Notes: generated by a model from the sequence alone, not told the origin. Positions 874 to 43,803 are shown, counted from the stretch's first letter. The stretch: DNA of 64,000 bases from an uncultured Chloroflexia bacterium (GCA_963713975.1 OY970218.1:3424001-3488000), one strand, 5' to 3'. Numbers and translations are program-made.

Positions 874-1028
874 GCCGCCCACCGGTTCAACCGTCGGGTG
901 CGGCCCGTGTGCGCCGCTGGGCGGCACGCTCGTCGGCCGAGGAGCCTGTCTCGACCCTGTAGGCCCGACAGATGTGCCGCCAGGCGGCGCGTTTTGCGAT
1001 GCGCCCGACCGTTCAACCGGTGAGCGGC
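874..1028. repeat. Long imperfect palindrome, family R146, copy A (155 bp variant)
   Basis: GCCGCCCACCGGTTCAACCGTCGGGTG...GCCCGACCGTTCAACCGGTGAGCGGC arms and inner GCGGCAC/GTGCCGC stem, shared with six other copies; lies between convergent genes. Confidence 0.85.
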
Positions 1029-1076
1029 GGCTGGGTCACGCGCGGCGCGGCCAACCTGTACCCGGTACGCGGCGGT

Positions 1077-1949
1077 TCACGCGCGGCGGGCCAACCCCTT
1101 GACGCGGGTCCACGCCCTCGATCGCTCGTCCCGTGTTGTCAGCGGGATCACGCCCAGCAGCATCGACAGCGAGCCGTACCAGAGCGCCGGCAGGCAGAGC
1201 ATCGTCCCCACCGGCACGACCCAGCGCTGGTTCCGGACCGCGCCCCAGGCGATCAGCGCGATCCCGATCGGGCCGCGGATCACCAGCGGGATGGGCACCG
1301 CCGCCCACGTGCCACCCTTGCCCGTGTTCCCGGCGAGCAGCGAGATCCAGTCCCGCCATGCCTCCGGGATCAGGACGAACGAGACGGCAATGACGGCGGC
1401 CGTGGCACCCAGGGCGATCGCCAGCGCACGCCATTCGCGACGCAGGGCGAACCACAGGAGCCCGACCCCGGGCGTGATCTTGGTCAACAGGACAAACGCC
1501 CAGGTCCACGGGCGCTTGAACCCCGCGACGATCGCGAGGGTGAGCAGCAGCGAGATGTTGCCGCCGGCGAGCTCCATCGCGCCAACGACCAGGCCCAGCA
1601 GGAACAGGTCGGGGCCCGTGATCAGGTAGGTGGCGCCGATCAGGATGGCGGTCCAGGCGGCCACGAACACGGGCCATGGCAGCAGGTCCAGCGGATAGAC
1701 GAGCTGGGCGAACGCCGGCGAGTACGGGTAGGCGCCGATCGTGTTCCAGTTGGTTCGGCCGGTGTACAGGTCCCCCAGCTCCAGGCCGTAGTAGGACCGG
1801 GCGTCCTGCGCGGTGACGACCTGACCGCTGAGCGGGTCCGTGACGTTCACGGTGGGATCGGAACCCAGGATCACCAGCACCCAGATCGCGATGGCCACCA
1901 CGAGTCCCGCGACGTGGCGCGGGTTGCGGCGGTCGAAGGCGCTGGTCAT
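1077..1949 (-). CDS. Glycosyltransferase family 87 (DUF2029)-like membrane protein
   Basis: Y-x-YSPAFAQL, GNISLLL, LLTKITPGVGLLW motifs; multiple TM segments; start at MTSAFD. Confidence 0.75.
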   Translation of the reverse strand: MTSAFDRRNPRHVAGLVVAIAIWVLVILGSDPTVNVTDPLSGQVVTAQDARSYYGLELGDLYTGRTNWNTIGAYPYSPAFAQLVYPLDLLPWPVFVAAWTAILIGATYLITGPDLFLLGLVVGAMELAGGNISLLLTLAIVAGFKRPWTWAFVLLTKITPGVGLLWFALRREWRALAIALGATAAVIAVSFVLIPEAWRDWISLLAGNTGKGGTWAAVPIPLVIRGPIGIALIAWGAVRNQRWVVPVGTMLCLPALWYGSLSMLLGVIPLTTRDERSRAWTRVKGLARRA

Positions 1950-2088
1950 GTCACCCCGGATGGCGGGCGGTTGGTGTCGCGGGCCATTGTCGCGGATGCA
2001 CGCCCGGCTGGAGGTCGCCGCGGGCACCGCCCGCCCGCCCATTGCCCCGGTCCAGCGCCGAGGCTCCGGATCGGGCATCCTCGGGGGC

Positions 2089-2517
2089 ATGAAGCTCTAC
2101 CTTGCCGGTCCCCTGTTCACCACCCCCGAGCGACTCTGGAACGAGGCCCTCGCAACCCGCCTCGAAGCCGCCGGCCATGAGGTCTACGTGCCACACCTCC
2201 ACCCCTCCGGCGAGCACACGGCGTCGGCCATCTTCCGCAAGGACCTGGAGGGCGTGGATTGGGCGGAGGGCGTCGTCGCGATCATGGACGGCGCGGATCC
2301 CGATTCCGGAACGTGCTGGGAGTGCGGGTACGCGTACGGTCGGGGCAAGCCCGTCATCCTGTTCCGGGGCGATTTCCGGGGCACGGGCGACTCGATCGAC
2401 ATGCCCTACAACGCGATGCTGGTCGGTGCAGCGGACGTCCACATCGAGCTGCCGCTGGCCACCGTGGACGAGGCTGCCGACGCGATCATCGAGGCGTTGG
2501 CGAGCCTGGGCAGGTAG
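2089..2517 (+). CDS. Nucleoside 2-deoxyribosyltransferase family protein
   Basis: KLYLAGPLF, DSGTCWECGYAYGRGKPV, YNAM motifs. Confidence 0.85.
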   Translation: MKLYLAGPLFTTPERLWNEALATRLEAAGHEVYVPHLHPSGEHTASAIFRKDLEGVDWAEGVVAIMDGADPDSGTCWECGYAYGRGKPVILFRGDFRGTGDSIDMPYNAMLVGAADVHIELPLATVDEAADAIIEALASLGR

Positions 2518-2582
2518 CGACGAGCCGACGGTGAACCCGGCCCAAGGCCGGGCCGCTGGCGCCGGGCCGTTACCATCGGCCG

Positions 2583-3494
2583 ATGAAGATCGGAATCGTG
2601 CTCCCGATGAACGAGGCGGATGGGCCGGGTGCGGGAACCTGGCCCGCGATCCGCAGGCTTGCGCTGGTGGCGGAGGCGGGTGGTCTCGACAGCCTGTGGG
2701 TGTACGACCACCTCATCTTCCGGATGGAGGGCGAGAAGGAGGACGGCATCCACGAGGCGTGGACCCTGCTGGCCGCCCTCGCGGCGGTCACCGAGCGCGC
2801 CGAGCTGGGCACGATCGTCCTGGGCACGGGGTTCCGGCCGCCGGCGCTGACGGCGAAGATGGCCGCGACGCTCGACGAGGTGGCGGACGGCCGCCTGATC
2901 CTGGGGCTTGGCACGGGCTGGCACGAGCCGGAGTACCGGGCGTTCGGCTACCCGTTCGACCATCGTGCCGGCCGGTTCGAGGAGGCGCTTGCCATCATCG
3001 CCCCTCTCCTCCGTGGCGAGCGGGTGACCCTGCACGGACGCTGGCACGAGGTGGAGGACGCAGTCCTGATCCCGCCGCCGCCTCGCCCGTCGCGCCTGCC
3101 CGGCCGGATCCCCCTGCTCATCGCGGCCAAGGGCGAGCGAGTGCTGCGGCTGGTCGCCCGACACGCGGACGCGTGGAACATGGCCTGGTTCGGCTTCCCC
3201 GACGAGCGGTCCGCAGGCCGCCTGTCGGACCTCATGGCCGCCTGCGATGCAGTGGGCCGCGACCCGGCCTCGATCGAGATCACGGTGGGCCTGACCGTCG
3301 ACAAGGAAGCCGCGGCCGGTGGCCGGCCGGGTGCACCGGCGGCCCTGCCGTCCGACCCCACCACCATCGCCCGGGCGCTGGATGCCTGGCGCGACCTCGG
3401 CGTCGGCCACGTCCAGGTGGACATGCGACCTGCCAACGGGCGGATGGTCGAGGTCCTGCTCGAGGCCCGGGCGTTGCATCTCGGGGTTGCCTGA
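2583..3494 (+). CDS. LLM-class flavin-dependent oxidoreductase
   Basis: AEAGGLDSLWVYDH, AKMAATLDEVADGRLILGLGTGW; TACCAT -10 box 6 nt upstream (leaderless). Confidence 0.9.
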   Translation: MKIGIVLPMNEADGPGAGTWPAIRRLALVAEAGGLDSLWVYDHLIFRMEGEKEDGIHEAWTLLAALAAVTERAELGTIVLGTGFRPPALTAKMAATLDEVADGRLILGLGTGWHEPEYRAFGYPFDHRAGRFEEALAIIAPLLRGERVTLHGRWHEVEDAVLIPPPPRPSRLPGRIPLLIAAKGERVLRLVARHADAWNMAWFGFPDERSAGRLSDLMAACDAVGRDPASIEITVGLTVDKEAAAGGRPGAPAALPSDPTTIARALDAWRDLGVGHVQVDMRPANGRMVEVLLEARALHLGVA

Positions 3495-3495
3495 T

Positions 3496-4290
3496 ATGGC
3501 GGCGGACGACGCGGACGCCCTGCCGGAGCACGTCGCCCTCAACCGTGCGGCGTGGGACGGCTACGCGCCCGACTACGTGGAGGCGGGCGAGCGGGCCTGG
3601 CGACTCGCCCCCGGGTCGGAGACGTGGGGCATCTTCGGCATCCCGGAGGCGGAGGTCCGGCTCCTGCCCGAGGATCTCGACGGCCTCGACGCCATCGAGC
3701 TCGGCTGCGGCACCGGGTACGTGTCCGCATGGTTGACGCGCCGCGGTGCCCACGTCGTCGGCATCGACAACTCACCGCGGCAGCTGGAGACCGCCGCCCG
3801 CCTCCAGCGCGAGCACAGCCTGGACTTCCCGCTCCTCCTGGGCAACGCGGAACGGGTCCCCTACCCCGACGCCTCGTTCGACTTCGCGATCAGCGAGTAC
3901 GGCGCCGCGCTGTGGGCCGATCCCTATGCGTGGGTCCCGGAGGCGGCGCGCCTGCTGCGGCCCGGCGGCAGGCTCGTGCTCCTCACCAACGGCCTGCTCG
4001 CGTACCTCACCGTGCCCGACATCGAGGCGGATGGGCCCGCCGACGAACGCCTCAAGCGCCCGCTGTTCGGGATGCACCGTACCGTCTGGCCGGACGAGCC
4101 CGGCTCCGTCGAGTTCCACCTCGCCCACGGCGACTGGATCCGGCTGTTCCGGGCCAGCGGGCTCGAGGTCGAAGACCTCGTCGAGCTGCGGGCGCCGGAC
4201 GACGCGACCACCAACTACCCGTGGATGGACGGCGAGTGGGCACGCAAGTGGCCGTGCGAGGAGGCGTGGAAGGTCCGCAGGCGCAGCTGA
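3496..4290 (+). CDS. Class I SAM-dependent methyltransferase
   Basis: IELGCGTG motif I, GIDNS, GNAERVPYPDASFD, LLRPGG. Confidence 0.9.
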   Translation: MAADDADALPEHVALNRAAWDGYAPDYVEAGERAWRLAPGSETWGIFGIPEAEVRLLPEDLDGLDAIELGCGTGYVSAWLTRRGAHVVGIDNSPRQLETAARLQREHSLDFPLLLGNAERVPYPDASFDFAISEYGAALWADPYAWVPEAARLLRPGGRLVLLTNGLLAYLTVPDIEADGPADERLKRPLFGMHRTVWPDEPGSVEFHLAHGDWIRLFRASGLEVEDLVELRAPDDATTNYPWMDGEWARKWPCEEAWKVRRRS

Positions 4291-4398
4291 GTCTGGCCCA
4301 ACCCAGCCCGGCTCGACGGCGGCGGTCCGTTCGGCCTTGCGGATCGCAGGGACAAACGGGCACCATGCCCCGGTAGCGAACCGGATGCTGGAGGTCTC

Positions 4399-5427: not shown

Positions 5428-5443
5428 CCGGAGACGGCAGCAG

Positions 5444-7803: not shown

Positions 7804-7865
7804 GTTCGCGCCGGCGGGTTCGCGCCGGGCGCCGGCCCCGCGCCGCCGGTCGCGTCGCCCGGAAT

Positions 7866-8011
7866 GCCGCGCAGCGGTTCAACCGTCGGGTGAACTCCCG
7901 GTTCACCCGCCCAGCGGCACATCTGCCGGCTGTTGGGCTGATTCCGCCCAACGGATGTGCCCTCCAGCGGCGCAAACCGGGTCGCACCCGACCGTTCAGC
8001 CGGCCGGCGGC
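7866..8011 (+). repeat. R146 palindromic repeat copy B (146 bp)
   Basis: GCCGCGCAGCGGTTCAACCGTCGGGTGAACT...CAGCGGCACATCTG...GGATGTGCC...GCGGCGCAAACC...CACCCGACCGTT...GGCGGC. Confidence 0.9.
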
Positions 8012-8102
8012 CGGCGGCGGCCCAGCCGGCCGGCGGCAGGCGGCGGCCCGCCGGCCCGGCGGGCTCCTCACGGGCCCGACCCGGACCCACGGGATCGACC
8101 GC

Positions 8103-18535: not shown

Positions 18536-18631
18536 GCCGGGAGTGTCGGCCTCCGGACCGTCCGCGGACAGGTGCCGATGGTTGCCCTCGAGATGGGGCC
18601 GTGCGGCCCGAAATGGCCGGGTCGGTCCCTG

Positions 18632-18720
18632 GGCCGGTTGCCCGTGCCGGTGCCGGTGGGCCGTGCCGGTGCCGGTTGCCGGTTGCCGGTGGGCCGTGCC
18701 GGTCCCGGTCGCCGGTCGCC
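18632..18720. repeat. Low-complexity tandem repeat abutting R146 copy C
   Basis: Reiterated GCCGGT/GCCGGTT/GCCGTGCCGGT units. Confidence 0.7.
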
Positions 18721-18723: not shown

Positions 18724-18869
18724 ACCCGCCAGCGGTTCAACCATCGGGTGAACTGCCGATCCACCCGACCAGCGGCACGTCTGTCGGCTGTCAGGGCAAC
18801 TCTGGCCGATGGATGTGCCGCCCCGCGGCGCAAACCGAGAAGGACCCGACCGTAGCACCGCCTGGCGGC
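18724..18869 (+). repeat. R146 palindromic repeat copy C (146 bp), downstream flank of HTH-nuclease gene
   Basis: CAGCGGTTCAACCATCGGGTGAACTGCCGATCCACCCGACCAGCGGCACGT...GGATGTGCCGCC...GGCGCAAACC...GACCCGACCGTAG...GCGGC. Confidence 0.9.
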
Positions 18870-19681: not shown

Positions 19682-19827
19682 GCCCCCCAGAGGTTCAACC
19701 ATCGGGTGAACTGCCGATCCAACCGACCAGCGGCACGTGTGTCGGCCGTCAGTGCCCTTCCGGCCGATGGATGTACCGCCCACCGGCGCAAACCACGCTG
19801 GACCCGACCGTAGAGCCGCCCAGCGGC
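19682..19827 (+). repeat. R146 palindromic repeat copy D (146 bp), upstream flank of HTH-nuclease gene
   Basis: GGTTCAACCATCGGGTGAACTGCCGATCCAACCGACCAGCGGCACGT...GGCCGATGGATGT...GGCGCAAACC...GACCCGACCGTAG; closest to copy C. Confidence 0.9.
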
Positions 19828-24250: not shown

Positions 24251-24396
24251 GCCGCTCAGCGGTTCTACCATCGGGTCAACCTGTGTTCGAGTCGCCTGGC
24301 GACACGTCTGTCGGCTGGCGGGGCTCCCCCGCCCCACGGATGTCCCGCTGCGCGGCGCAAACCGGCTGGCGCCCGACCGTTGGGTCGCCCGGCGAC
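24251..24396 (+). repeat. R146 palindromic repeat copy E (146 bp)
   Basis: GCCGCTCAGCGGTTCTACCATCGGGTCAACCTG...CGCCTGGCGACACGTCTG...GGCGCAAACC...GCCCGACCGTTGG. Confidence 0.9.
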
Positions 24397-25468: not shown

Positions 25469-25614
25469 GCCGCCCAGCGGTTCTACCGTTGGGTCAACCT
25501 GCGTTTGACTCGCCTGGCGGCACGTCTATCGGCCGGCGGGGCTCCCTCACCCCACTTGGGTGCCGCCGGGCGGCGCAAACTGGCAGGCACCCGACCGTTG
25601 GGGCGCTCAGCGGC
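25469..25614 (+). repeat. R146 palindromic repeat copy F (146 bp)
   Basis: GCCGCCCAGCGGTTCTACCGTTGGGTCAACCTG...CGCCTGGCGGCACGTCT...GGCGCAAAC...CACCCGACCGTTGG; closest to copy E. Confidence 0.9.
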
Positions 25615-25805: not shown

Positions 25806-26096
25806 TCAGGCAGGCTGCTGTGGCCGAAGGAAGGCCGCGGGCCGCTCGATCGCCTCCCCCGTCGGGGCCGGCCCATCCCAGATCAGCGTCTCGGGAGCGA
25901 TATCAACATCCCCGGGCCAGACCAGGGTGCCGTACGCGACGGCGACGCTCCGGAACAGGCCTTCATCGGCGGCGATCGGATCGAACAACGGCCCACGGAG
26001 CAGGTCCGCGAGGTCGCGAACGACCATCTCGCCATCCGTCAGGGTGAGGCGGACGGTCCGGTCATGCATCGGTGCGACGGCAGCAATCTCAAGCAT
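25806..26096 (-). CDS. DUF2442 family protein (putative antitoxin)
   Basis: VRLTLTDG..GPLFDPI..FRSVAV..GTLVWPGDVDIAPETL signature; follows DUF4160 gene. Confidence 0.85.
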   Translation of the reverse strand: MLEIAAVAPMHDRTVRLTLTDGEMVVRDLADLLRGPLFDPIAADEGLFRSVAVAYGTLVWPGDVDIAPETLIWDGPAPTGEAIERPAAFLRPQQPA

Positions 26097-26106
26097 CGCG
26101 CCGATC

Positions 26107-26364
26107 CTAGTCGATGGGTTCCATGGGCACCAGCGGCAGCTGTTGCCGCGCCAGCTCCCAGTCGACGAGCAGCTCCTGGGTTCGGGTGGCCGCCCACTCG
26201 GACACCAGCGCGAGCGCTCGCGGCGGGAGCGATCCGGCCAGCAGTTGGCCGTCCGTCGTGACCGTCGCTGACGCGCTGCCGCAGCGAGCGTGAAAGTGCG
26301 GTGGCGCGTGGTCGTTGTCGTTGAGGGTGATGACGATCCCGTAGAAGCGGCTGGCCTCGGGCAT
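26107..26364 (-). CDS. DUF4160 family protein (putative toxin)
   Basis: MPEASRFYGIVI..NDHAPPHFHA..GSLP..LVSEWA..ELLVDW signature. Confidence 0.88.
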   Translation of the reverse strand: MPEASRFYGIVITLNDNDHAPPHFHARCGSASATVTTDGQLLAGSLPPRALALVSEWAATRTQELLVDWELARQQLPLVPMEPID

Positions 26365-26686
26365 TCCAAGAGCCTACGAAGTCGGAGTTCGCGGCCGCTT
26401 GTGCCGTGGCGTGAATGTCGCCAGCCCTGGCCGATCTCAGCCCGCGACGCCCGCCCGGCGTGGCTGCTCGACGATCCGGAAGCCGACGGAATGGAGGACC
26501 CGGGTGATGTCGCCGGGATGCGGCAGGCCCTCGAGGATGACCCCATTCCGACGCGGCGACAGGATCTCGATCCGATGGCCGAGCCATTGGCTCCGTAGTT
26601 GATCCCGCGGGCATCGCCGTGACGGTCCTGGCAGTCCCCGAACGGGGCGCCCGTGACGGCCGCAGGGACTTGTCCGTCACCCCAAC

Positions 26687-31784: not shown

Positions 31785-33110
31785 ATGCGGGTGTTCGAAC
31801 TCTACCGCTACATGAAGCCCAGTCCGGGCCCGGACGTCGAGTTCATCGACGGGTACCGGAACATCTTCCACGCGACGCGGTGGCCCGCATGGCCCGGATT
31901 GGCTGACGCCGGGCGAGTCCAGCTCGACCACGGCATCGACTCGGTCAAGCAGATCAAGGCTGTCGACGGCGTCCGGCGGCCGGCAATCCTGATCGCATCG
32001 AAACCACACCGGGCGGGCTCGGACTGGACGCCGTGGCACGACGAGCTCGACCCTGAGCGCGGCTATGTTCGCTACTACGGCGACAACAAGGCGGATCTCG
32101 GACCTGACCCCTTGGCGCCGGCTGGAAACCGATCAGTGCTGAGTCAGTTCCCGCTCCATCAGGGAGCGTCGAGGTTGGATCGACTTCGGGCTGCCCCACT
32201 CCTCTTCTTCGAGAGCCTGATCCACGATGGAAAGGCCAAGGGATATTGGCGGTTCCTCGGAGTGGGCCTGGTCGAGCGCGCCGAGCTTGTCACTCAGATC
32301 GACCGGCGCCATCGACCATTCGTCAACTACGTGTTCGACTGCATGCTCGTCGATCTAAGCGCGGAAGATCTGGGCATCGCGTGGGAATGGATCGCAGCTC
32401 GCCGAGATCCATCCAAATCGCTGGAGGAATGCCTGGCATTGGCGCCCGCAAGCTGGCGACAGTGGGTCGAGAACGGCGCAGCCGTCAAGGAGCGAATCCG
32501 CCAGCACATGTCGCGGAGCAGCACGCTGAGCGCGCAGGACCAGCGACCCGATGCGGGAACTCCCGCTGAGGATGCACTGAGGCACGTGGTCGCTCACTAC
32601 AAGAGCCTCGGTGGCTTCCATGGCGTCGGCGAACACCAATTCGAAGGATTGGCATCCGAGATCACGGGTGGCGTCCTTCGCGAGAGTGGGCACTACACCC
32701 CGGGCTGGATAACGAAGCGAGCTGGCGACGGCGGGATCGACTTCGTGAGTCGACTCGACGTGGGCTCCGGCTCAGGCGCGCTCAAGCTGGTGGTGCTCGG
32801 CCAGGCCAAGTGCGTTGCTGGCGCAGCGCCGGTGACCAGCGGCCTTGACCTGGCTCGAACGGTTGCTCGTCTCGATCGCGGGTGGGTCGGAGCCTTTGTT
32901 ACCACGGGCTACTTCAGCGAGCAGGCCCAGCGTGAGGTCGTCACCGATCGATTCCCGCTGCTCATGCTAAATGGCCGGCATGTCGGAGAGGCCGTGGTAA
33001 GAGAGTCGGAGCTCCGCGGAGTCTCGGTGCCGGAATACATTCAGTCGATCGACGCCGACTACGAGTCGCGCCTGTCGAGCCGCTTGCCGGCGGAGATCCT
33101 CACCGATTGA
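31785..33110 (+). CDS. Modification-dependent (type IV/IIM) restriction endonuclease, AspBHI-like SRA-type N-terminus + Mrr-cat nuclease
   Basis: RPAILIAS..PWHDELD..VRYYGDNK..FLGVGLVERAE; C-terminal QFEGLA..GDGGIDF..GQAKC (Mrr D-x-QAK); more A/T-ending codons than neighbours. Confidence 0.8.
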   Translation: MRVFELYRYMKPSPGPDVEFIDGYRNIFHATRWPAWPGLADAGRVQLDHGIDSVKQIKAVDGVRRPAILIASKPHRAGSDWTPWHDELDPERGYVRYYGDNKADLGPDPLAPAGNRSVLSQFPLHQGASRLDRLRAAPLLFFESLIHDGKAKGYWRFLGVGLVERAELVTQIDRRHRPFVNYVFDCMLVDLSAEDLGIAWEWIAARRDPSKSLEECLALAPASWRQWVENGAAVKERIRQHMSRSSTLSAQDQRPDAGTPAEDALRHVVAHYKSLGGFHGVGEHQFEGLASEITGGVLRESGHYTPGWITKRAGDGGIDFVSRLDVGSGSGALKLVVLGQAKCVAGAAPVTSGLDLARTVARLDRGWVGAFVTTGYFSEQAQREVVTDRFPLLMLNGRHVGEAVVRESELRGVSVPEYIQSIDADYESRLSSRLPAEILTD

Positions 33111-33122
33111 GGCATCGGGGAG

Positions 33123-36100
33123 TTACGCCCGCTCCGGGCACATTGCCCGATAGTCGCAGTACTCGCACGTCTTGAAGCCCGGCGAGGCCGTGAACTCGCC
33201 GGCGCGGATCCGCCCCACGATCCCGGTGATCACCTCGCGGGCCGCATCCAGCTCCTCCTCGGAGCGCACCGTGGACCGCCGCTGGGCGCTCTCGGTGAAG
33301 TACAGGGTGACGAGCTCGGGCGTGCCCAAGCCCAGGGCATCGCGGCAGGCGAGCGCATAGATGGTGAGCTGGAGGTTCTCGGCAACGTCCTTCTGGGACT
33401 TGGTGGAGCCGGTCTTGTAGTCCAGGACCTCGATACCGCCGGACGGCAGCCGGTCGATGCGGTCGATGCTGCCGTAGATGCGAACGGGGGCGGGGCCGTC
33501 ATCGGGCACCAGGACAAGCTCGAAGTCGAGCTCCTCGTGGAGGGCCTCCCCCACCGTGCTGAGCTCGGCATTCCAGAAGTTGTCGAGCAGGCCCTCGGCG
33601 CGGCGCTTGTAGCCGGCCTCGGTGGCGACATCGCCGAAGTCGGCGGGCTTCCACTGGGCCGCGAACAGGGCCCCGAGCTCCTCGCGGGTGGGCGGCGCCT
33701 CACCGCGCGCGATCCGCTCCCGACGCATCCGCGTGAACTCCTCGAACGCCGCATGCGCCGTGTTGCCGAAGGAGAAGAACGCCTTGGGCTTGTCCGGCCC
33801 AGGGACCTTGTAGACGTACCGCAGCGCGAACTGGAGCGGGCACCTGGTGTAGGTGCTGAGGCTGGTGTACGAGAACCCGGACGGGGCGGGGGCGACGAGC
33901 AGGAGGTTGGCCCCGGCACCAGTGTCCAGGGCGACGCTGCGGAAGGTGAGCGGGTCCAAGCCTGCCGCTCGAGCCTCGTCGGCGGACATGGCGGCAGCCC
34001 GGCCCGTCGCGAGGAGGCGCGCCTCGTAGGCGACCCGGGCATCGGCGGCTTCGGGATCCGTGGCTGCCGAAGCCTCCATGAGGCCCACGATCTCCGCGGC
34101 CCGCAGGCGGAGGACGAGACGGCGCTCCCGCGTGGTGGGCAGCGGCATGACTCGGCGGGCGGCGGCGAGTGCGGCGCTGGTGGCGCAAGCCTCGGCGTCA
34201 TCGTCCTCATCCATGTCGTCGGGGTCTTCGGCCGCCTCGCCGGCCTCGGCCGCACCTTGGAGCGCCTCGGCCTCGGCCACCGTCCGATCGGTCACCACCA
34301 GCTCGGCCCCGTGCTCCTCGAGCAGCTCCCCGATGAAGACGGACTGGCCCTTCTTGGCCGCGGCACCCGCGTGCGTGGAGAGCAGCAGGCGGTCCTGCGC
34401 ACGGGTCATCGCCACGTACAGGAGCCGGCGCTCTTCGTCGGTGTGGAGGTTGCCGCCAGGGACCTGCTCGCGCAGGAGCTCGCGCGGGAACCAGCCTGAG
34501 CCCATCTCCCTGGTGGGCCACTCGCCCTCGAGCAGGTTGGGCACCACGACCACCGGGAACTCGAGGCCCTTGGCCTGGTAGAGGGTCATGAGGCGCACGC
34601 CCTCGACGTCCTCGGACAGCTCCACCGAGGTGGGCAGCTCGCCGCCGGCGGCGGTGTAGGCATCGAGGTAGTCCACGAAGTCAGCGAGCGTCCCAACCGG
34701 GTTGGCCCCCTGCCAGTCCGCGGCGAAGCGCAGGAAGCTCGCGACGTTGACGACCGAGCGCTTGGCCTCGAGCGTGCCCGCCGCCAGCAGCGAGAGCACG
34801 GTGGCCGTCAGCTCCACGTACCGCTCCAGGACGGTGTACGGGCCCTCGCGCCAGGTGAGCGGGTTGAGCTCCTCGATGGCGGCGAGCAGCTGGCGCAGCC
34901 TCGCTCGCGTCTCCGCCGGGACGGTGGTGGTTCGGGTGCGCCGGTCCTTGTCGTCGCCCGCCTCCGTCTCGGTCCGCTCCCCTCGCTCCACGATCCGCTT
35001 GATGGCGGCGATCGCGTGGCTGCGGTCCGTGCGCGCGTCGCGCATGACGGCGAGGACCTCGAGGGCGTCCAGGCGCCAGGGGCCGGCGGTCATCATGCGC
35101 ACGAGGGCCGGGTCGTTGGTGGGATCGGCGATGGCGCGCAGGGCCTGGTCCAGGTCCCGGATCTCGGGGGTCTCGAACAGGGAGAGGCCACCCACGACGG
35201 TGTACGGGATGTCCTCGGCGCGGAGGCGCTCCACGATCGCGTCGCGGTGCTTGTGCTTGCGGTACAGGATGGCGACGCTGCTCCAGGGTCTCGCGGTGCC
35301 GTTGTCGGTGGCGGCGCGGATGGCGTCCACGATGGCGACGGCCTCGTCCTCCGGGCCCGCGCAGATATGCAGTTCGATGGGGGCGCCGGCCTCCCGGTCG
35401 GTTCGCAGGACCTTGTCCGGCGCGAAGCGGGTGTTGTTGCACGCGATCAGCCGGTTGGCGCCGTCGAGGACATTGCGGACGGAGCGGAAGTTCTGCTCGA
35501 TGGCGAGGTGGCGGAGTGCACCGGGCGCGGAGCCGCCCGGGTCGTGCGCGGGCGGGCGCGAGAAGCGGGCGTCGAACTCGGCGAAGGCGGCGAAGCTGGC
35601 GCCGCGGAAGCGGTAGATGGACTGGTCGTCGTCCCCCACCACCATGACGTTGTCGGGGCGATCCGGCGTACGCCCCAAGAGCTCGATGAGCTCGATCTGG
35701 GCGACGTTCGCGTCCTGGAACTCGTCAACCAGGATGTAGCGGTAGCGTCGCTGCCAGCTGCACAGGACGTTGGGGCGCTCCTTGAAGAGGCGCGTGACGA
35801 GAGCGATCTGCTCCCCGAAGTCGAGGGCGCCGCGCGAGGCGAGGGCCTCCTCGTAGGCGCGATAGACCTGGGCGAGCTCGTCGAGGCGGAGGATCTCGAA
35901 GCCGGCGCCGTCGCGCTCGTAGTCCGCGGCAAGCTCCGCGATCCGGGCGTGCTGGTCTGCGTCGAAGTCCTTCGGGCGATGGGCGTAGCCGTCGCCGGCT
36001 GTCACGCGGCGGGCCTCCCGGTCCGCGATGGCCGCCGGGCGGGGGGCCTTCACGGGCTTCTTGCCGGGCGGTGTTGGCGCCAGCGTGCCGTTGTCGCGGG

Positions 36101-36803
36101 CCCTCTCCCAGGAGCGAAGTCCGGCGTACGCAGAGCGCGTGTCCCTGGTGCCGCGGACGGTGCCGGTCATCCGGAGTCGTTCCTCAATCGCCTCGTAGGA
36201 GCCGTAGCGTTCCTCGAAGATGACGCGCTCGGTGTCCACCCAGGCCTCGAAATCGTCCGGGGTCACCAGCTCGTCCTTGGCGCGGTTGATGAACTTGACG
36301 AAGTCCGCGTGCGAGTACTCCGAGTGGTAGCGCAGGTCCAGCGCCTCGTGCATGCCGCGCAGGAGGAGGAGCTGGCCGACACCATCGAGCACCTCGGGCC
36401 GGGGTGGCAGACCGGCGTCGGCGCTGCTCTCGGTGAGGATCGTCTGGCAGAAGCTGTGGAAGTTGCTGACGGCCATCCGGGCGCGCGCGGCCGGCCCCAC
36501 GGCCTGGTCCAGCCGCTCCTGGAGCTCGCGTGCAGCCTTGACGTTGTAGGTCAGGACCAGGAGCTGCTCGGGTGAGAGCGGGCCGTCGAAGGGACTGCCG
36601 TGGCGCGGCGTGGGCTCCGCGGGGATGGCGGTCCCGGCGGCGGTCCGCTTGCCCTTGGTCTCGAGGAGCCAGCGCACCCGCTCCACGATGACCCGCGTCT
36701 TGCCGGTGCCGGCGCCGGCGATGACCACGACCGGGCCGTCATCCGTCTCGACGATGGCGCGCTGCTCAGGCGTCAGCGCGAACGGGTCTCCCGCGGCGGT
36801 CAC
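33123..36803 (-). CDS. UvrD-family helicase fused to Fe-S PD-(D/E)XK nuclease (AdnB/AddA-like)
   Basis: AGAGTGKT, VDEFQD, VGDDDQSIYRFRGA, YQAKGLEF, EERRLLYVAMTRA; RCP..GSIDRID..LDYKTG..QL.IY..CEYCDYRAMC. Confidence 0.9.
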   Translation of the reverse strand: MTAAGDPFALTPEQRAIVETDDGPVVVIAGAGTGKTRVIVERVRWLLETKGKRTAAGTAIPAEPTPRHGSPFDGPLSPEQLLVLTYNVKAARELQERLDQAVGPAARARMAVSNFHSFCQTILTESSADAGLPPRPEVLDGVGQLLLLRGMHEALDLRYHSEYSHADFVKFINRAKDELVTPDDFEAWVDTERVIFEERYGSYEAIEERLRMTGTVRGTRDTRSAYAGLRSWERARDNGTLAPTPPGKKPVKAPRPAAIADREARRVTAGDGYAHRPKDFDADQHARIAELAADYERDGAGFEILRLDELAQVYRAYEEALASRGALDFGEQIALVTRLFKERPNVLCSWQRRYRYILVDEFQDANVAQIELIELLGRTPDRPDNVMVVGDDDQSIYRFRGASFAAFAEFDARFSRPPAHDPGGSAPGALRHLAIEQNFRSVRNVLDGANRLIACNNTRFAPDKVLRTDREAGAPIELHICAGPEDEAVAIVDAIRAATDNGTARPWSSVAILYRKHKHRDAIVERLRAEDIPYTVVGGLSLFETPEIRDLDQALRAIADPTNDPALVRMMTAGPWRLDALEVLAVMRDARTDRSHAIAAIKRIVERGERTETEAGDDKDRRTRTTTVPAETRARLRQLLAAIEELNPLTWREGPYTVLERYVELTATVLSLLAAGTLEAKRSVVNVASFLRFAADWQGANPVGTLADFVDYLDAYTAAGGELPTSVELSEDVEGVRLMTLYQAKGLEFPVVVVPNLLEGEWPTREMGSGWFPRELLREQVPGGNLHTDEERRLLYVAMTRAQDRLLLSTHAGAAAKKGQSVFIGELLEEHGAELVVTDRTVAEAEALQGAAEAGEAAEDPDDMDEDDDAEACATSAALAAARRVMPLPTTRERRLVLRLRAAEIVGLMEASAATDPEAADARVAYEARLLATGRAAAMSADEARAAGLDPLTFRSVALDTGAGANLLLVAPAPSGFSYTSLSTYTRCPLQFALRYVYKVPGPDKPKAFFSFGNTAHAAFEEFTRMRRERIARGEAPPTREELGALFAAQWKPADFGDVATEAGYKRRAEGLLDNFWNAELSTVGEALHEELDFELVLVPDDGPAPVRIYGSIDRIDRLPSGGIEVLDYKTGSTKSQKDVAENLQLTIYALACRDALGLGTPELVTLYFTESAQRRSTVRSEEELDAAREVITGIVGRIRAGEFTASPGFKTCEYCDYRAMCPERA

Positions 36804-36816
36804 CTGCTTCGGCCCC

Positions 36817-37317
36817 CTAGTAGCGGTAGAGGGACGCCACGAAGGGCACCCGGTTGTAGAGCATCAGCCCCAGGGGGAGCGTGATGATCAGCACGATGAG
36901 GGCGAAGCCGATGGACATCGCGAGAGCCGACGCCCACCACCCCACGACGATGAACCACAGGCCGCGGATCCACCACGGCTGCTGGGTGATCGGCACGGAC
37001 TGGCCGATGCCGCCGCGGGTGCCGTCGCTCCACGTGGCGTAGGTCTCCGTCCGAGGACGCAGCGTCAGGACCGTGGGGATCCGGTTCACCAGCCAGATCC
37101 CCAGGGGCAGGCCGATGATCGTGATCATGGCCAGCCAGGCGACGGCCGACGTGATGCCGGTCAGCCACCAGCCGACGAGCACGAACCACAGCGCCCGCAC
37201 GAGCATGCCGGGACCGCGCTTCGCCTCGTGGAAGGTCACGGTCAGCGGGGGCGGCGGCACCATCGGCACGCCGGGCGGAGGGACCTGGCCCATGGGCGGC
37301 TCAGCGGGTCCCGTCAC
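36817..37317 (-). CDS. YccF-domain membrane protein
   Basis: Duplicated RALWFVLVGWW..ITIIGLPLG / RGLWFIVVGWW..IITLPLG. Confidence 0.8.
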   Translation of the reverse strand: MTGPAEPPMGQVPPPGVPMVPPPPLTVTFHEAKRGPGMLVRALWFVLVGWWLTGITSAVAWLAMITIIGLPLGIWLVNRIPTVLTLRPRTETYATWSDGTRGGIGQSVPITQQPWWIRGLWFIVVGWWASALAMSIGFALIVLIITLPLGLMLYNRVPFVASLYRY

Positions 37318-37415
37318 GCGAGCTCTCCGCGCGGTTCGATCTGGGTCATGGCCTCATCATCCTCCACGGTGGCGTGACAGGTTGGGTGTCACGGGCGGGC
37401 GACCCAACGGTGCAG

Positions 37416-37598
37416 GGATCACCGGCAGTGCTATTCCGCGGCATTCCTGCCCGATTGCCCGCGGTCCTCTCGCGCCGTGCCGCCCTGGACGCCGGGCGCA
37501 TCACCACCGGTGATCGCCATGGCGAGATCCAGCTTCTGGAGCGCCGGGTACCACCGCCGGGTTGCGCGGCAGTGCCCGGATAGCACGGCTGGTGATCC
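37416..37598. repeat. Element with about 28 bp imperfect terminal inverted repeats (MITE-like)
   Basis: GGATCACCGGCAGTGCTATTCCGCGGCA vs reverse complement of right end GGATCACCAGCCGTGCTATCCGGGCA. Confidence 0.6.
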
Positions 37599-37627
37599 GC
37601 CGGGCCACAGACAGCCAAGGACGCCGC

Positions 37628-39343
37628 TCACGAGAGCATCGCCGCGACGCTGCCGGGCGCCACGACCACCAGGTGGTGCTTCGCGCGAGTGGCGCCAACG
37701 TACAGGAGCCGTTCGAGCCGGTTGTCGTCCGGTCGCAGCTCGGCGATCACCACGACGTCGCGATCCAGGCCCTTGAAGCGGTGGATGGTGTCGCACAGGA
37801 TCGTGCCCGCGGGCTGGTCCGGTACGTCATCGGCCGACAGGCCCATCGAGCGTCCCGCGTCATCGACGTTCCCGTTCCAGAGCACGAGATCGCCCCGGAA
37901 TCGACGCTGCTTCCAGGTAGCGCTGTGCTCGAGCGAGACGCCGGTGAGGACGACGATCTGCGCGCGGTCCACCTTCTCCACGTGGACCAGCTCGTGGAGG
38001 GCGGCGCGGACGGCATCCACGGTCGCCTCGGGCCCGTCGGCCTCGATCACCACGGGCGCCCGACCGTCCTCGCGCACCGGCTCGGCGGCCAGGTCACCGT
38101 CGTAGAAGCGGTAGGCCAGGTCGTGGATGGGTCGCGAGTTGCGGCAGTTGTCCGGGAGCGGGTACTCGTCGAGGCCGAGAGTGGACACGGCGTCGGTCCG
38201 GTAGATGGCCTGCGCCGGGTCGTGGAAGACGTACAGGACACCCCGCTTGGGATCCACCAGGAGCTGTTCCAGGAGCATGAGCCAGAGCTCCTCGAAGTCC
38301 TGGCCCTCGTCGATGACCAGCGCCTGGACCCGTCCGCCCACCTTGGGGAGGGCGCGCTCAAGGGCGCCCGGAAGCTGGGTGTCGAACCAGTCGCGGCCGG
38401 GGTTCGCGGGCTGGGGTGGAAGCGTTCCGGCCTCGGTCCCCAGGCGCCGGCACAGCTCGTGGAAGGTGCCCACCGAGAGGCGGCCCGACGCGATGTGCGG
38501 GGCGAGCTCGGGGTCGCGGGCGAGGGCGCGCGCGAGCGGCTGGTTGAAGCAGGCGAGGATCGTGTCGAAGCCGTCCGCCGCCAGCTGGCGGGCCTTCTCC
38601 GCCGCGAGGAGGCTCTTGCCGGCTCCCGCACAGCCCACCACCGATGCCCGGGGCTTGGCGCGCAGCGTGCGCAGGACGGACAGCTGCATGCGGGTGGGGG
38701 CCCGGAGCTCGTGCTCGCCCTCCTCGATGTCGCCGCGGAGCAGGGCACGCAGGACCACCTCGGGCTCGATGACATCGCAGATGACCTCGACCTGGCTCTC
38801 GGTCAATGCGGCTTTGCGCGCGCTGTTGCCCTTCCAGAAGGCCACCACGCGGGCGAGGGCTCGGGTTGCTGCTTCGTCGGTGGCCAGGTCCGCGCGGTCG
38901 AGGATCAGCTCGGCCGGCGCATCGGGACCGAGGGTCGGGTGAAGGCGAGTGAGGCTGGCGCGGTCCGTGTCGGGGAAGGCGACGGCGTGGAAGGTCAGGA
39001 CCTCGCCGACCCAGCGAGGGTCCGCCTTGACCTTCCCGCCCATCGTGCGCGCCGACGTCTCGGCCTGCTTGAAGGGCGGGGGCCTCAGGAGCCGATCAGC
39101 GGCGTGCCAGTCTCCGGAGCGGTCGCGGACGATCGGGCCGCCCTTGGTCTCGATGACGAGCAGCCCGATCTCGGGGAGGACGAGCAGCAGGTCGATCTCG
39201 CCGTTGCGCGCGGCGCCGCCATCCTCGGTGGGCGCGAGCCAGCGCACGTTGGCGAAGCAGACGGCACCCTCGGGCAGGACGGCACGAATCCGCTCCTCGA
39301 CGAGGCGCTCCGCTCGCCGTCCGAGCTCGCCGCGCTCCCCCAT
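37628..39343 (-). CDS. NERD nuclease domain fused to SF1 helicase/AAA domain
   Basis: GEIDLL..GLLVIETKGG..PFKQA (NERD); GCAGAGKS, VIDEGQDF, NCRNS, TIHRFKGLD, LYVGATRA. Confidence 0.88.
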   Translation of the reverse strand: MGERGELGRRAERLVEERIRAVLPEGAVCFANVRWLAPTEDGGAARNGEIDLLLVLPEIGLLVIETKGGPIVRDRSGDWHAADRLLRPPPFKQAETSARTMGGKVKADPRWVGEVLTFHAVAFPDTDRASLTRLHPTLGPDAPAELILDRADLATDEAATRALARVVAFWKGNSARKAALTESQVEVICDVIEPEVVLRALLRGDIEEGEHELRAPTRMQLSVLRTLRAKPRASVVGCAGAGKSLLAAEKARQLAADGFDTILACFNQPLARALARDPELAPHIASGRLSVGTFHELCRRLGTEAGTLPPQPANPGRDWFDTQLPGALERALPKVGGRVQALVIDEGQDFEELWLMLLEQLLVDPKRGVLYVFHDPAQAIYRTDAVSTLGLDEYPLPDNCRNSRPIHDLAYRFYDGDLAAEPVREDGRAPVVIEADGPEATVDAVRAALHELVHVEKVDRAQIVVLTGVSLEHSATWKQRRFRGDLVLWNGNVDDAGRSMGLSADDVPDQPAGTILCDTIHRFKGLDRDVVVIAELRPDDNRLERLLYVGATRAKHHLVVVAPGSVAAMLS

Positions 39344-39603
39344 GCCGTGCCTCCCGTGGTCCGGTGCGGGCCGGGGTCCGGGACGTAGCGGTCCGGTCCG
39401 GGACGTCGCAGTCCGGGCCTGGGTCCGACGTGGTCCTGGCCGTCGCTGCGAGCCCCGCTGGCGACCGTAGCAGAGCGATCGCGCGTGCGCTCTGGTCCGT
39501 CCGGCCTCTGCCAGGGCGCCGTCCGGCCCATGTCTCCCCCCCCCACAACCGCACCGCGGGCGCGCGAGAACGGGCGCTCGGCACGGTTACGGGGTGAGGC
39601 CGA

Positions 39604-40167: not shown

Positions 40168-40374
40168 CGGTGGGCCCTCAGGAACCTTCCTATGTTTGTC
40201 ACTCCACATTATGAACAACGGCGGCGATACGGTGAAGTGCCGAGCGACGCCTAGTCCCGGGCGGTTGTTCGTGCAGCAGATGGCAACCGAAACGCCCTCG
40301 CCGGCGTCAGGGGCGCGCAGAACCGGCACTTGCGCCGGCGGCCCAACCGACACGAGACCCGAGAGGCGACCTCC

Positions 40375-41163: not shown

Positions 41164-41192
41164 CCGGATACCGCTCGCCACAACGGCAGCTG

Positions 41193-41225
41193 GACGGCCC
41201 CGGGGGCGAACCCTCCGGGGCCGTT
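41193..41225. terminator. GC-rich stem-loop after SIMPL gene
   Basis: ACGGCCCCGGGGG-CGAA-CCCTCCGGGGCCGT. Confidence 0.6.
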
Positions 41226-41330
41226 CCGCGTCCGGAGCGGGCCGCGGACGACGCCCGGTGCCGTCGTCTCTTGGCAGGCGGGGCGCCGTGGGGCAGGATG
41301 TCTCCTGCACCTTCGTCCATTCGGGAGCCC

Positions 41331-43649
41331 ATGCACCGGTCCTTCGCCACCATCGTCGTCGCCATCGTGGGCGCTGTCGCGCTCCTCGGGATCCAGCCGC
41401 CGCCCGCCTCCGCGGCCGAGGGCTACTCGGACAGCGCGACCACCGTCTACACGCTCGACCCGGCCAAGGGCGTCCTCCGTGTCACAGTGACGATCAAGGT
41501 GAAGAACACCACGCCTGACACGAGCCAGCCCTACTCGTGCGTCAAGTACAGCAACGACTGGTTCCCCGTCCCCTACCTCGACACCTGCTACGAGACGACG
41601 AGCTACTACATCACCACGGCCTCGGCGGTGGTCGAGAGCGAGGCCAAGTCGATCAAGGCGGTCTCCGGCGGCAAGCCGCTCGAGGTGAGCGCCGGCAACG
41701 GGGACGCCTGGTACCGCTCGGTCACGGTCCGGTTCCCGGAGCTGTTCTACGGCGAGAGCCGCACGATCAAGCTGACCTACACGGTCAAGGGCGGGGCCCC
41801 GCGCAGCGACACCGCCACCCGGACGCTGCGCGCCTATGCCAGCTTCTGCGCCATCGCCAACGGCACCGATGCGAGCACGGTCACCGTGCGGATCCCCAAG
41901 GGGTACGACGTTGCGACGACCGGCAGGAAGCTGAAGGTGGCCACGGCCGGCAAGGAGCGCGTCTTCACCAGCGGCGCGATCAAGAACCCTGCGACCTGGT
42001 CGGCCTGCTTCAGCGGCACCAACAAGGCCGGCTACCGGACGCAGAAGCTCGCGACGCCGGACGGCCAGACGATCCGCCTGCGCTCGTGGCCCGAGGACGA
42101 GGCCTGGGCGACGAGCGTGAGCGCGGACGTGCAATCCAGCCTTCCCCTGCTGCAGCGATTGACCGGCACCGGGATGAGCGCCACCGCGAACCTCAACGTG
42201 CAGGAGTCGGCGACGGGCAACGAGTACGCGGGCTTCTACAACGCGGATACCAACACGGTGACGGTCGGCGAGGACTTCGGGCAGCCTGCGATCGTCGAGC
42301 ACGAGCTCGCCCACGTCTGGTTCAACGGCGGCAACCTCAAGGAGACCTGGCTCAGCGAGGGGTTCGCCGAGTGGGCCGCCCGCGCCGTCAGCGAGGAGGA
42401 TCCGGCCTGCGTGCAGCCCGATGCGGCGCCGGGCAGCATCACCCTGGCCACCTGGCGGTACCTCGAGCCCCGCGCCGATGCTGCCGAGCGGGTGGCCGTC
42501 GCCACCCAGTACCAGGCCGCCTGCCACGTCATGACCTCGGTCGCGACGGCAGCCGGCGAGGAGCGGATGACGCAGGCCGTGACCGCGCTGCTCCAGCGCC
42601 GGGACCCGTACGCTGCCGATCCCGAGTCGAAGCGGGCGGCGCGCCTCGCGACCTGGAAGGACTGGCTGGACGCCGTCGACGAGCTGGCCCTGGCGCCCGT
42701 CGGCGTGCCGGAGACCATGGCCTCGGACCTGCTGGTGGCCTACGGCGTCACCACCGACACGGGCCTGCTCGCCCAGCGGGCGGCGGCTCGGACCGCCTAC
42801 CGGGACCTGGTGGCGACGGTCGATGGCTGGACGGTTCCCGCGGCCGTGCGCACGCCGCTGTCGACCTGGAGCTTCGGCGCCGCGGAGACGGCGATCGAGA
42901 GCGCCACGCTGACCTGGGCGCTGACCGGCGAGACGGACCAGGCGCTCCCGGGCGTGGACGCGCGGCACGGGCCCGCGGCGGAGGCTTGGGAAGGCGCGAC
43001 CACGATCAACGACCTCGAGGCCGCGGCAGATCTCGCCGCCCGGCAGCTCGCGGCCGCGCGTGACGTGGCCGATGCCCTGGCCCTGGTGGACCAGCCGCTC
43101 GACATCGTCCAGCAGGTGGGCCTGTTCGGGATGCAGGTCCAGAGCCCGGACGCGGCCATCCCGGCCGTCAGGGCGGGTGACGGTGACGCCGTCGCCGGGA
43201 TCACGGCCCAGATCCGGGCATCGGTCGCGGGGTTGCGGGCCACCGGCCAGCAGCGGATCGCGGCGGGCGGCGCGATGCTCGCGCTCCTGGTGACGATGCT
43301 CGCAGTGTTCACCGTCCGGCGTGCGCGCCTGGCGTCGCGCCGTCGGGCCGTCGCGCGGGCGGCCGCGTTCGTGGCCCAGTCCCCTGCCCCGGTGTGGACG
43401 TCACCGCCGATCACCTCTCCCCGGACGTCATGGCCTGTGGGCTCATCGGACGACGCACCGACGCAGGTCTGGGACGTCCCGATCCTCAGCTCGGGCGCGG
43501 ATCCGGACCTCGGGTCGCTCGTGCACAAGCCGGGTCAGGCCCCGGAACCGTGGGTCCCGACCGCGTCGGTGGCGATGGACGTGCCGGCGGACGTTGCTGC
43601 GGCGCCGGCGGACGACGAGCCCGCAATGGAGCCTGGTCCAGATCGCTAG
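41331..43649 (+). CDS. Secreted, C-terminally anchored zinc metallopeptidase (gluzincin, M1/MA-like)
   Basis: Signal peptide, YAGFY, HELAHVW..WLSEGFAEW (HExxH + E), C-terminal TM and acidic tail. Confidence 0.75.
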   Translation: MHRSFATIVVAIVGAVALLGIQPPPASAAEGYSDSATTVYTLDPAKGVLRVTVTIKVKNTTPDTSQPYSCVKYSNDWFPVPYLDTCYETTSYYITTASAVVESEAKSIKAVSGGKPLEVSAGNGDAWYRSVTVRFPELFYGESRTIKLTYTVKGGAPRSDTATRTLRAYASFCAIANGTDASTVTVRIPKGYDVATTGRKLKVATAGKERVFTSGAIKNPATWSACFSGTNKAGYRTQKLATPDGQTIRLRSWPEDEAWATSVSADVQSSLPLLQRLTGTGMSATANLNVQESATGNEYAGFYNADTNTVTVGEDFGQPAIVEHELAHVWFNGGNLKETWLSEGFAEWAARAVSEEDPACVQPDAAPGSITLATWRYLEPRADAAERVAVATQYQAACHVMTSVATAAGEERMTQAVTALLQRRDPYAADPESKRAARLATWKDWLDAVDELALAPVGVPETMASDLLVAYGVTTDTGLLAQRAAARTAYRDLVATVDGWTVPAAVRTPLSTWSFGAAETAIESATLTWALTGETDQALPGVDARHGPAAEAWEGATTINDLEAAADLAARQLAAARDVADALALVDQPLDIVQQVGLFGMQVQSPDAAIPAVRAGDGDAVAGITAQIRASVAGLRATGQQRIAAGGAMLALLVTMLAVFTVRRARLASRRRAVARAAAFVAQSPAPVWTSPPITSPRTSWPVGSSDDAPTQVWDVPILSSGADPDLGSLVHKPGQAPEPWVPTASVAMDVPADVAAAPADDEPAMEPGPDR

Positions 43650-43657
43650 CGTGTCGT

Positions 43658-43803
43658 GCCGCTGGGCGGTTGTACCGTTGGTTGTCGTGCAGTTTGGGCC
43701 GCCAGGAGGCACACCTGTCGGTTGAACCGGGCCCTGGAGGCGGCAGACGTGCCTCCCGGCGGCTGGATCATGCCTTCACCCGACCGTACGGCCGCTGGGC
43801 GGC
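43658..43803 (-). repeat. R146 palindromic repeat copy G (146 bp, reverse orientation)
   Basis: Reverse complement GCCGCCCAGCGG..TCGGGTGAA..GAGGCACGTCTG..GTGTGCCTCC..GCGGCCCAAACT..CCGCCCAGCGGC. Confidence 0.85.

Follow-up and report, generated by a model that had tools for sequence, protein, structure and literature searches.

A previously undescribed palindromic repeat of 146 bases from a single genus of uncultured soil Chloroflexota

Introduction

Miniature inverted-repeat transposable elements (MITEs), enterobacterial repetitive intergenic consensus (ERIC) sequences, and Correia elements are noncoding sequences of 100 to 160 bp that carry terminal inverted repeats and differ in presence or absence at a given site between relatives. 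The attC sites of integrons have RYYYAAC and GTTRRRY as consensus core sites and are otherwise conserved in structure while free in sequence. For repeats of the repetitive extragenic palindromic (REP) kind, including bacterial interspersed mosaic elements (BIMEs) and REP doublets forming hairpins (REPINs), the REP-associated tyrosine transposases (RAYTs) are, to our knowledge, the only enzyme family known to bring about propagation. Here we analyze a dispersed family of long imperfect palindromes first noticed in a 64-kb stretch (the window) of the genome of an uncultured Chloroflexia bacterium (OY970218.1, positions 3424001 to 3488000), and we compare it with these described systems.

According to the excerpted text of PMC3116915, the REPINs of Pseudomonas and Enterobacteria are REP doublets that form hairpins and occur with RAYT transposases. 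The BIMEs of Escherichia coli are composed of REPs in alternating orientation together with linker motifs, and gyrase binding has been reported for them; the gyrase motif itself spans 130 bp and has phased G/C content, and gyrase cleavage sites are enriched in BIME-2 elements (PMC6379681, in excerpt). The CGTC-tagged REP superfamily, single hairpins of 20 to 40 bp with an unpaired tag at one end, is said in the excerpted part of PMC3733652 to lack a dedicated transposase.

The family consists of palindromic repeats of 146 bases that have not been described before and occur in a single genus of uncultured Chloroflexota from soil, and a literature search at title level found no published account of such repeats in Limnocylindria or Chloroflexota. 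We report its census and the turnover of its sites, and we show that its paired positions do not covary among the copies of a genome and do covary between the types found in different species. We think it reasonably probable that the element is a genus-restricted, non-autonomous, copy-propagating palindromic intergenic repeat, similar in kind to REPs, BIMEs, and REPINs or to MITEs.

Results and Discussion

Copy census and anatomy of the element

The source genome (G000) is a single contig of 3.62 Mb with 70.8% G+C. The original prediction, made from the window alone, listed seven copies between genes, six of 146 nucleotides (nt) and one of 155 nt; a whole-length alignment recovered all seven at those coordinates and lengths, each between called genes, and the sequence blocks that they had been said to share are real, with a mean column identity of 71% in the seven-copy alignment. 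A profile search of G000 with a model built from these copies (lettered A to G in coordinate order), with boundaries set in register, returned 32 full-length copies and no fragments even at an E value of <10, except for one dubious 85-nt match (E = 2.1). Twenty-six of these copies are 146 nt long, 2 are 145 nt, 3 are 156 nt, and 1 is 155 nt, and they are scattered genome-wide on both strands (15 plus and 17 minus). The window holds 7 copies in 64 kb compared to ~0.57 expected under an even spread of the 32. The copies are clumped in the genome, with 10 of 32 lying in 3.347 to 3.468 Mb, 8 in 0.743 to 0.973 Mb, and 6 in 2.457 to 2.553 Mb. Orientation was fixed by all-against-all comparison in both directions, and once solved consistently it amended the original assignment: copy G (at 43658) runs opposite to copies B to F, and copy A is ambiguous.

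The element is two-fold symmetric, 146 bp or less often ~156 bp in length, and comprises four mini-palindromes of 13 bp each (GCCGC-N3-GCGGC), a pair of conserved inner boxes, and an apex that varies. In the left half, unit 1 (GCCGC-N3-GCGG) is followed by the conserved box TTCAAC-C/G-GTCGGGT, by a variable spacer, and then by unit 2; a semi-conserved stem leads to the variable apex, after which the right half continues with unit 3, a GCAAACC-type spacer, the mirror box, and unit 4, such that units 1/4 and 2/3 occupy mirror positions. The outer helix (alignment columns 7 to 32 with 137 to 162) contains 24 pairs with 81% of cells paired and constitutes the terminal inverted repeats. The center of the inner box is non-complementary, being C/C in 14 copies, G/G in 14, and pairable in just 2 of 32. 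Read directly, the loop triplets of unit 1 agree with those of unit 4 at 59 of 96 positions, as opposed to 17 of 96 when read inverted, which mostly reflects the existence of two subfamilies. Some copies have GT...AC around their units, and the GTAG (GT[AG]G) head is absent from the consensus. Outside the elements, GCCGC-N3-GCGGC occurs 81 times in G000, with no excess over comparable control palindromes (99 to 202 times); the 13-mer is therefore not a free-standing repeat, and its tagged form is nearly restricted to elements (10 of 12 and 12 of 14 occurrences).

Placement relative to genes

Placement was assessed with a crude gene call based on G+C content at third codon positions (GC3) that covered 85% of the genome, a few calls being wrong; by this measure 19 copies lie at convergent sites (genome baseline, 21%; enrichment P = 3.6e-6), 12 at tandem sites (baseline, 58%), and 1 at a divergent site (baseline, 21%; depletion P = 0.005). 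Site B is tandem by Pfam annotation, contrary to the GC3-based call. Among the 19 sites with both genes within 200 nt, 13 are convergent, 6 are tandem, and none is divergent. Copies lie 4 to 100 nt behind stop codons, with gene 3' ends preferred, and no significant orientation bias with respect to transcription was detected, 3 of 12 tandem copies being co-oriented with it.

Hairpin folding and covariation among copies of one genome

All seven window copies fold as long RNA hairpins (z-scores of -2.2 to -6.3), and DNA folding of two copies, B and G, showed little difference between the strands. In-register pairing across the 32 copies reaches 81% of 1,663 cells and falls to 31 to 44% when partners are slid by 1 to 3 columns, a collapse indicating that the palindrome is real but is a property of the family consensus. 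The original prediction had gone further and proposed selection on a folded single-stranded DNA or RNA hairpin in each copy. To examine covariation we used 52 mirror pairs in the 32 copies and shuffled the 3' partners among copies (500 shuffles), and significant covariation is absent within the genome: standard pairs occupy 80.8% of cells versus 81.4 +/- 0.4% after shuffling, 478 of 500 shuffles equal or exceed the observed value, and the covariation score is 0.134 versus 0.143 shuffled. An earlier alignment in which one subfamily was reversed had the same outcome (81.7% paired versus 82.8% shuffled). There is no wobble bias, with 156 G·T cells versus 170 A·C cells, such that neither strand is favored as a folded molecule, and RNAalifold returned for the 32 copies a weak consensus of 15 pairs (-8.8 kcal/mol) that we did not adopt as a structure. 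The proposed per-copy selection is unsupported on these grounds, and the original prediction had itself listed a lack of significant covariation among the outcomes that would count against it. The compensatory change reported in copy G is real, yet it is a single case, an A-U pair in 1 of 32 copies at columns 56/113. We also considered the local 13-mer hairpins as independently selected structures and rejected them, their pairing showing no covariation (83.8% paired versus 84.2% shuffled).

These data bear on the idea of a structured RNA element, whether a terminator, an mRNA-stabilizing hairpin, or a small RNA derived from gene 3' ends. Such a role would suit the long RNA hairpin formed by every window copy and the location of copies shortly behind stop codons, but it is very unlikely in light of the missing covariation, the equality of G·T and A·C cells, the similar folding of both DNA strands in the two copies folded, and an orientation that is unrelated to transcription. 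Comparison with Rfam also argues against it, with no window match at the gathering score and, for 10 copies with their flanks at E <= 1, only a chance match to mir-1202 (21.8 bits versus a gathering score of 80); reading of the aligned flanks, where no dedicated terminator search was run, brought no U-tract downstream of the hairpins to notice.

Distribution among species and covariation between types

Searches with a covariance model of the element gave matches in 13 of 24 further species belonging to the genus and in none of 16 sister-family genomes, with ~36, 15, 11, 12, and 10 copies in the relatives labeled G013, G006, G012, G016, and G024, respectively. The cross-species set consists of 105 full-length copies from 14 genomes and leaves out a partial copy (L092) and one cut by a contig end (L110). 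Five types can be distinguished: T1 in G000 with G013 (64 copies), T2 in G016 with part of G006 (12 copies), T3 mainly in G012 (7 copies), T4 in G006 (6 copies), and T5 in G017 with G010 (3 copies). Modal length is 146 nt in G000, G013, and G016, 147 nt in G012, and 145 nt in G006. The type consensuses are only 49 to 76% identical to one another, but each is 145 to 147 nt long and keeps 49 to 58 of 73 mirror pairs.

When types are compared, mirror pairs changed on both sides mostly remain complementary, with 9 to 18 staying Watson-Crick versus 1 to 3 broken per comparison; the exception is T1 versus T3, with 3 still paired and 1 broken. This co-change, together with the preserved length, indicates that symmetry and length are maintained in the lineages that found new copies, and its combination with the absence of covariation within a genome indicates that two-fold symmetry or foldability is required of the propagating lineage and not of each copy. 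The original view of a preserved palindrome therefore holds at the level of species types and fails at the level of compensation in individual copies.

A broader pattern scan, covering 185,579 species genomes, picked out 16 loci, of which one is a true copy (L070, in the uncultured Chloroflexia metagenome-assembled genome G013; 99 bits) and the remainder, a Rubrivirga locus apart, are chance matches. The Rubrivirga (Rhodothermales) locus, L059, matches the full model at 19.4 bits (E = 0.012) and is probably also due to chance, although it could be a distant palindromic relative. No matches were found in plasmids or phages.

Site turnover, age, and local duplication

Comparison of the sister species G000 and G013 reveals insertion polymorphism. 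BLAST of the flanking sequences assigned 32 of the 36 G013 copies to positions on G000, the other 4 being read from a syntenic stretch (L071), and 10 of the 36 sites are common to both genomes (7 placed by BLAST and 3 of 4 in L071). At least 13 G013 copies sit where the G000 intergenic gap is 51 nt or less. Within the window, site B holds no copy in G013, G024, or G005, and site A is also empty in relatives; sites C and D are common to G000 and G013, and at sites E and F the model has no match in the syntenic G013 stretch.

At four-fold degenerate positions (1,445 sites) G000 and G013 are 57% identical, a value close to saturation. Copies at shared sites have an identity of 0.676 versus 0.653 for unrelated cross-species pairs (P = 0.04), and for 29 of 32 G000 copies the closest relative is in the same genome. 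Median identity to the nearest relative is 0.81 for G000-only copies (n = 21) versus 0.75 for shared-site copies (n = 11; P = 0.03). These values fit an old layer of copies to which further copying has added since the two species separated.

Local duplication is also evident. In G013 a whole copy is duplicated in tandem, almost identically and with a period of ~231 nt, and there are arrays (L071, 10300 to 10800, and L070) in which the right end of the element and ~40 nt of flank are repeated 4 to 5 times in tandem. In G000, the element's own end 11-mer recurs in the adjoining 120 nt for 5 of 32 copies (9 occurrences versus 0.8 expected from random windows), and copies with adjoining end-word repeats are thus seen in both genomes. 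At another locus of G000 (L101, 2549071 to 2552675) two copies bracket a gene for a 787-amino-acid FtsX/MacB-type permease, and at the corresponding site G013 has a single copy and lacks the permease gene, an arrangement suggesting that the repeats may also act as recombination points. The permease was considered as a partner enzyme and dismissed, since it is not a transposase.

A length rule and the phasing of A/T positions

The original claim that length is kept constant despite frequent substitution is borne out, with ~1028 differences from the consensus and only 6 length changes (two of 1 nt and four of ~10 nt) among the 32 G000 copies. In the cross-species set, 90 copies are 144 to 147 nt long, 13 are 155 to 157 nt, 2 are 150 to 151 nt, and none is of any other length. 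The extra ~10 nt always lie at the apex, the inserts are unlike one another, and the long copies are not mutual nearest relatives, one pair excepted; two sites shared by G000 and G013 differ by this same step (156 versus 145 or 146 nt). In type T1 the strongest period of A/T positions is 10.5 bp, and the 10- to 11-bp band has P values of 0.018 (G000) and 0.014 (G013) under a palindrome-preserving permutation, or 0.14 and 0.10 family-wise under the mirror null; phasing is weak in T3 and T4 (0.10 and 0.06), and nothing was found in T2 and T5. Together, the length rule, the scarcity of indels, and the A/T phasing are suggestive, and only suggestive, of recognition as phased duplex DNA.

These features call for consideration of a site used by the host, in which a symmetric multimeric protein, such as a nucleoid protein or DNA gyrase (the latter at a strong site, as reported for E. 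coli BIME-2), would bind duplex DNA and bend or wrap it, and which would sit where convergent transcription piles up supercoils. Two length classes ~10 nt apart with dissimilar apical inserts, shared sites that differ by exactly this step, the T1 periodicity, the small number of indels, the conservation of each arm on its own without compensation or wobble preference, and the enrichment between convergent genes would all be expected of such a site, and the phased 130-bp gyrase motif and the enrichment of gyrase cleavage at BIME-2 (PMC6379681, in excerpt) would also fit. We nonetheless consider this explanation unlikely, given that the periodicity is not significant family-wise and is weak or lacking in the other types, that the sets of sites occupied in sister species are very different and no match was obtained in 11 of 24 congeners, that selfish spread is what local duplication in tandem and the species-specific types look like, and that no binding protein has been identified.

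A related and decidedly doubtful proposal is that the element is more than a selfish hairpin repeat, namely a duplex-DNA wrapping module that is spread and kept without a RAYT. Here the four 13-bp palindromes and the A/T patches recurring at each helical turn would seat a two-fold symmetric protein assembly, with gyrase, an unknown recombinase, or a nucleoid protein proposed for this part. Such a module would explain why length changes only by a whole helical turn (146 or 156 bp), why the arms are conserved without compensation, and why they would co-evolve between species together with the protein.

Propagation and the search for a partner enzyme

Under the copy-propagating repeat that we favor, a few active lineages in each genome would make new copies, which would land in short spacers behind gene 3' ends and sometimes duplicate locally. 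Propagation would require matching arms, whether recognition is by a symmetric protein or takes place on a transient hairpin, and this requirement would keep the palindrome and its length while the sequence drifts between species; a copy once inserted would gather substitutions without compensation in the other arm. We infer that this spread is enzymatic, through a putative partner enzyme that the searches below did not bring to light.

Several results weigh against this explanation. No Y1/RAYT gene (PF01797) was found in G000 or in the 61 genomes searched across the genus, 22 of which are at least 90% complete; the control of this search was positive for 6 of 14 reference genomes. Nor was an integron integrase (TIGR02249) found in the source genome, where the best score was 82.9 bits versus a cutoff of 265. 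The ends of the two rve-type insertion sequence (IS) families in G000 are unrelated to the element, and no solo arm or arm-gene-arm structure occurs in that genome. No target-site duplication was found among words of 2 to 8 nt at all boundary offsets from -6 to +19, the best word-repeat signal lying inside the element, in the loop triplets of units 1 and 4 (10 observed versus 5.4 expected). No clean empty site could be recovered, as spacers are unalignable beyond the element (13 sites filled in G013 versus G000, and site B). The indel-poor divergence described above, with no truncated copy, looks unlike the decay of ordinary dead transposon copies, and at shared sites the copies can be aligned to G013 with no indels whereas the flanking sequences are unalignable, which hints at constraint on resident copies.

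The remaining inventory of mobility genes is small. Each of the two rve-type IS families in G000 is present as two near-identical copies (99.3% and 99.9%; Table 1), one of which lies ~3 kb from the repeat copy at 3346892. A Y2 transposase (Y2_Tnp) occurs only in G013, DDE_Tnp_1 is absent from both G000 and G013, and the tyrosine recombinase genes of G000 number just three, each lying >490 kb away from the window.

Comparison with described repeat families

The element resembles REPINs in being intergenic, in combining inverted short palindromes and a spacer into a long hairpin-capable unit, in forming within-genome populations that persist in a lineage, and in occasional tandem clusters that include flanks. 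It differs in the absence of RAYT/Y1 genes in the 61 genomes, in having no single-unit population outside the element and no GTAG head, in comprising four units instead of two, and in numbering only 32 copies rather than hundreds. As in BIMEs, short palindromes alternate in orientation, are joined by conserved linkers, and form a mosaic located at gene ends, although BIMEs vary in REP number and here the whole mosaic is copied as one unit of fixed length; a possible link to supercoiling arises for this element only under the host-used site considered above. Size, terminal inverted repeats, a noncoding nature, and presence or absence at sites are all reminiscent of MITEs, ERIC sequences, and Correia elements, from which it is set apart by a palindrome that spans the whole element and by the absence of truncated copies, by the lack of a detected target-site duplication, and of a parent IS with matching ends. 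The CGTC-tagged REPs are likewise palindromic and without an associated transposase, and the inner left box of subfamily B contains CGTC, but these REPs, as characterized in the excerpts of PMC3733652, are short single hairpins with an unpaired tag at one end, which would set them apart.

The similarity to attC sites lies in the imperfect palindrome, its size, and the conserved non-pairing position, and it raises the question of whether the copies belong to a decayed or integrase-less integron (a cluster of attC sites lacking integron integrases, or CALIN), each marking a gene cassette. The pairs C-D and E-F each bracket one gene, and the element-permease-element arrangement of G000 opposite the lone element of G013 speaks for this origin as well. 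We regard this origin as extremely unlikely. The left core is present in 19 of 32 copies and the right core in 10, with both in just 4 of 32 (and in 17 of 105 across all species); integron integrase is absent, and none of the three tyrosine recombinase genes is near the window; conserved sequence runs 17 nt past the would-be core sites; and the copies are scattered genome-wide on both strands. In contrast to attC sites, it is sequence blocks that are conserved here, and pairing is not compensated. The original description of the family as analogous to REPIN/BIME-type elements or attC sites, yet matching neither, thus stands on both counts: the likeness to REPIN/BIME-type elements is real, and the mismatch consists of the missing RAYT, REP singlets, and GTAG head in the one case and of the missing attC cores and IntI in the other.

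Features of the window

The coordinates of the seven copies and of associated features are collected in Table 1. Genes around the window copies encode an aminotransferase, a GT87 protein, an ABC-2 permease, MarR, a helix-turn-helix (HTH) protein, an aldo-keto reductase, a DEAD helicase, EamA, and DUF2442/DUF4160 proteins, and no transposase or integrase is encoded within the window. The DUF2442/DUF4160 gene pair adjoining copy F could be a small toxin-antitoxin-like module. Directly upstream of copy C, the spacer is a run of short GCCGGT-type tandem repeats, and the matching spacer of G013 has a different, longer tandem repeat. The window also contains a defense-like cluster.

Table 1. Coordinates of repeat copies and other features (window positions unless marked as genome positions)
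Feature	Position	Strand	Remarks
Copy A	874-1028	+	155-nt class, ~10 extra nt at apex; listed as +, orientation ambiguous
Copy A neighbor, aminotransferase gene	1-843	+	Convergent with GT87 gene
Copy A neighbor, GT87 gene	1077-2090	-	Convergent with aminotransferase gene
Copy B	7866-8011	+	146 nt
Copy B, unit 1	7866-7878		Left half
Copy B, left box	7879-7891		Left half
Copy B, unit 2	7906-7918		Left half
Copy B, apex	~7919-7958
Copy B, unit 3	7959-7971		Right half
Copy B, right box	7986-7998		Right half
Copy B, unit 4	7999-8011		Right half
Spacer with GCCGGT-type tandem repeats	18560-18720		Directly upstream of copy C
Copy C	18724-18869	+	146 nt; same site occupied in G013
Copy D	19682-19827	+	146 nt; closest relative copy C (85%); tandem pair at this G013 site
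Copy E	24251-24396	+	146 nt; closest relative is the copy at genome position 2549071 (86%)
Copy F	25469-25614	+	146 nt; closest relative copy E (83%)
DUF2442/DUF4160 gene pair	25806-26546		Adjoins copy F
Defense-like cluster	31785-39343
Defense-like cluster gene	31785-33110		Protein with AspBHI-type restriction endonuclease N-domain
Defense-like cluster gene	33123-36803		1,226-amino-acid UvrD-helicase/PD-(D/E)XK nuclease
Defense-like cluster gene	37628-39343		NERD-UvrD_C protein
Copy G neighbor, open reading frame	41271-43649	+	Convergent with 44001-45293
Copy G	43658-43803	-	146 nt; subfamily A; orientation opposite to B-F
Short tandem repeats of element end word and flank	43804-43850	.	Adjoin copy G; from alignment with flanks
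Copy G neighbor, open reading frame	44001-45293	-	Convergent with 41271-43649
rve-type IS family, two copies (genome positions, G000)	1755598-1756967 and ~3178500-3179870
rve-type IS family, two copies (genome positions, G000)	1270320-1273066 and ~3341430-3344175

Implications

The family described here extends REP/BIME/REPIN-like repeats to a class of uncultured Chloroflexota that lacks RAYT. It also brings together three signatures on the same data, namely the absence of covariation among copies, strong covariation between types, and length steps of approximately one helical turn, which jointly offer a way to separate a constraint on propagation from a function of the resident copy. If the element is simply a mobile repeat, it would be ordinary in kind, yet useful for strain typing and for finding an unknown transposase. 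If instead the length rule does reflect duplex wrapping, the copies would be natural positioned sites for the study of genome topology in a lineage with no cultured member. The main interest of the family lies in this length rule and in the contrast between covariation at the level of copies and at the level of types.

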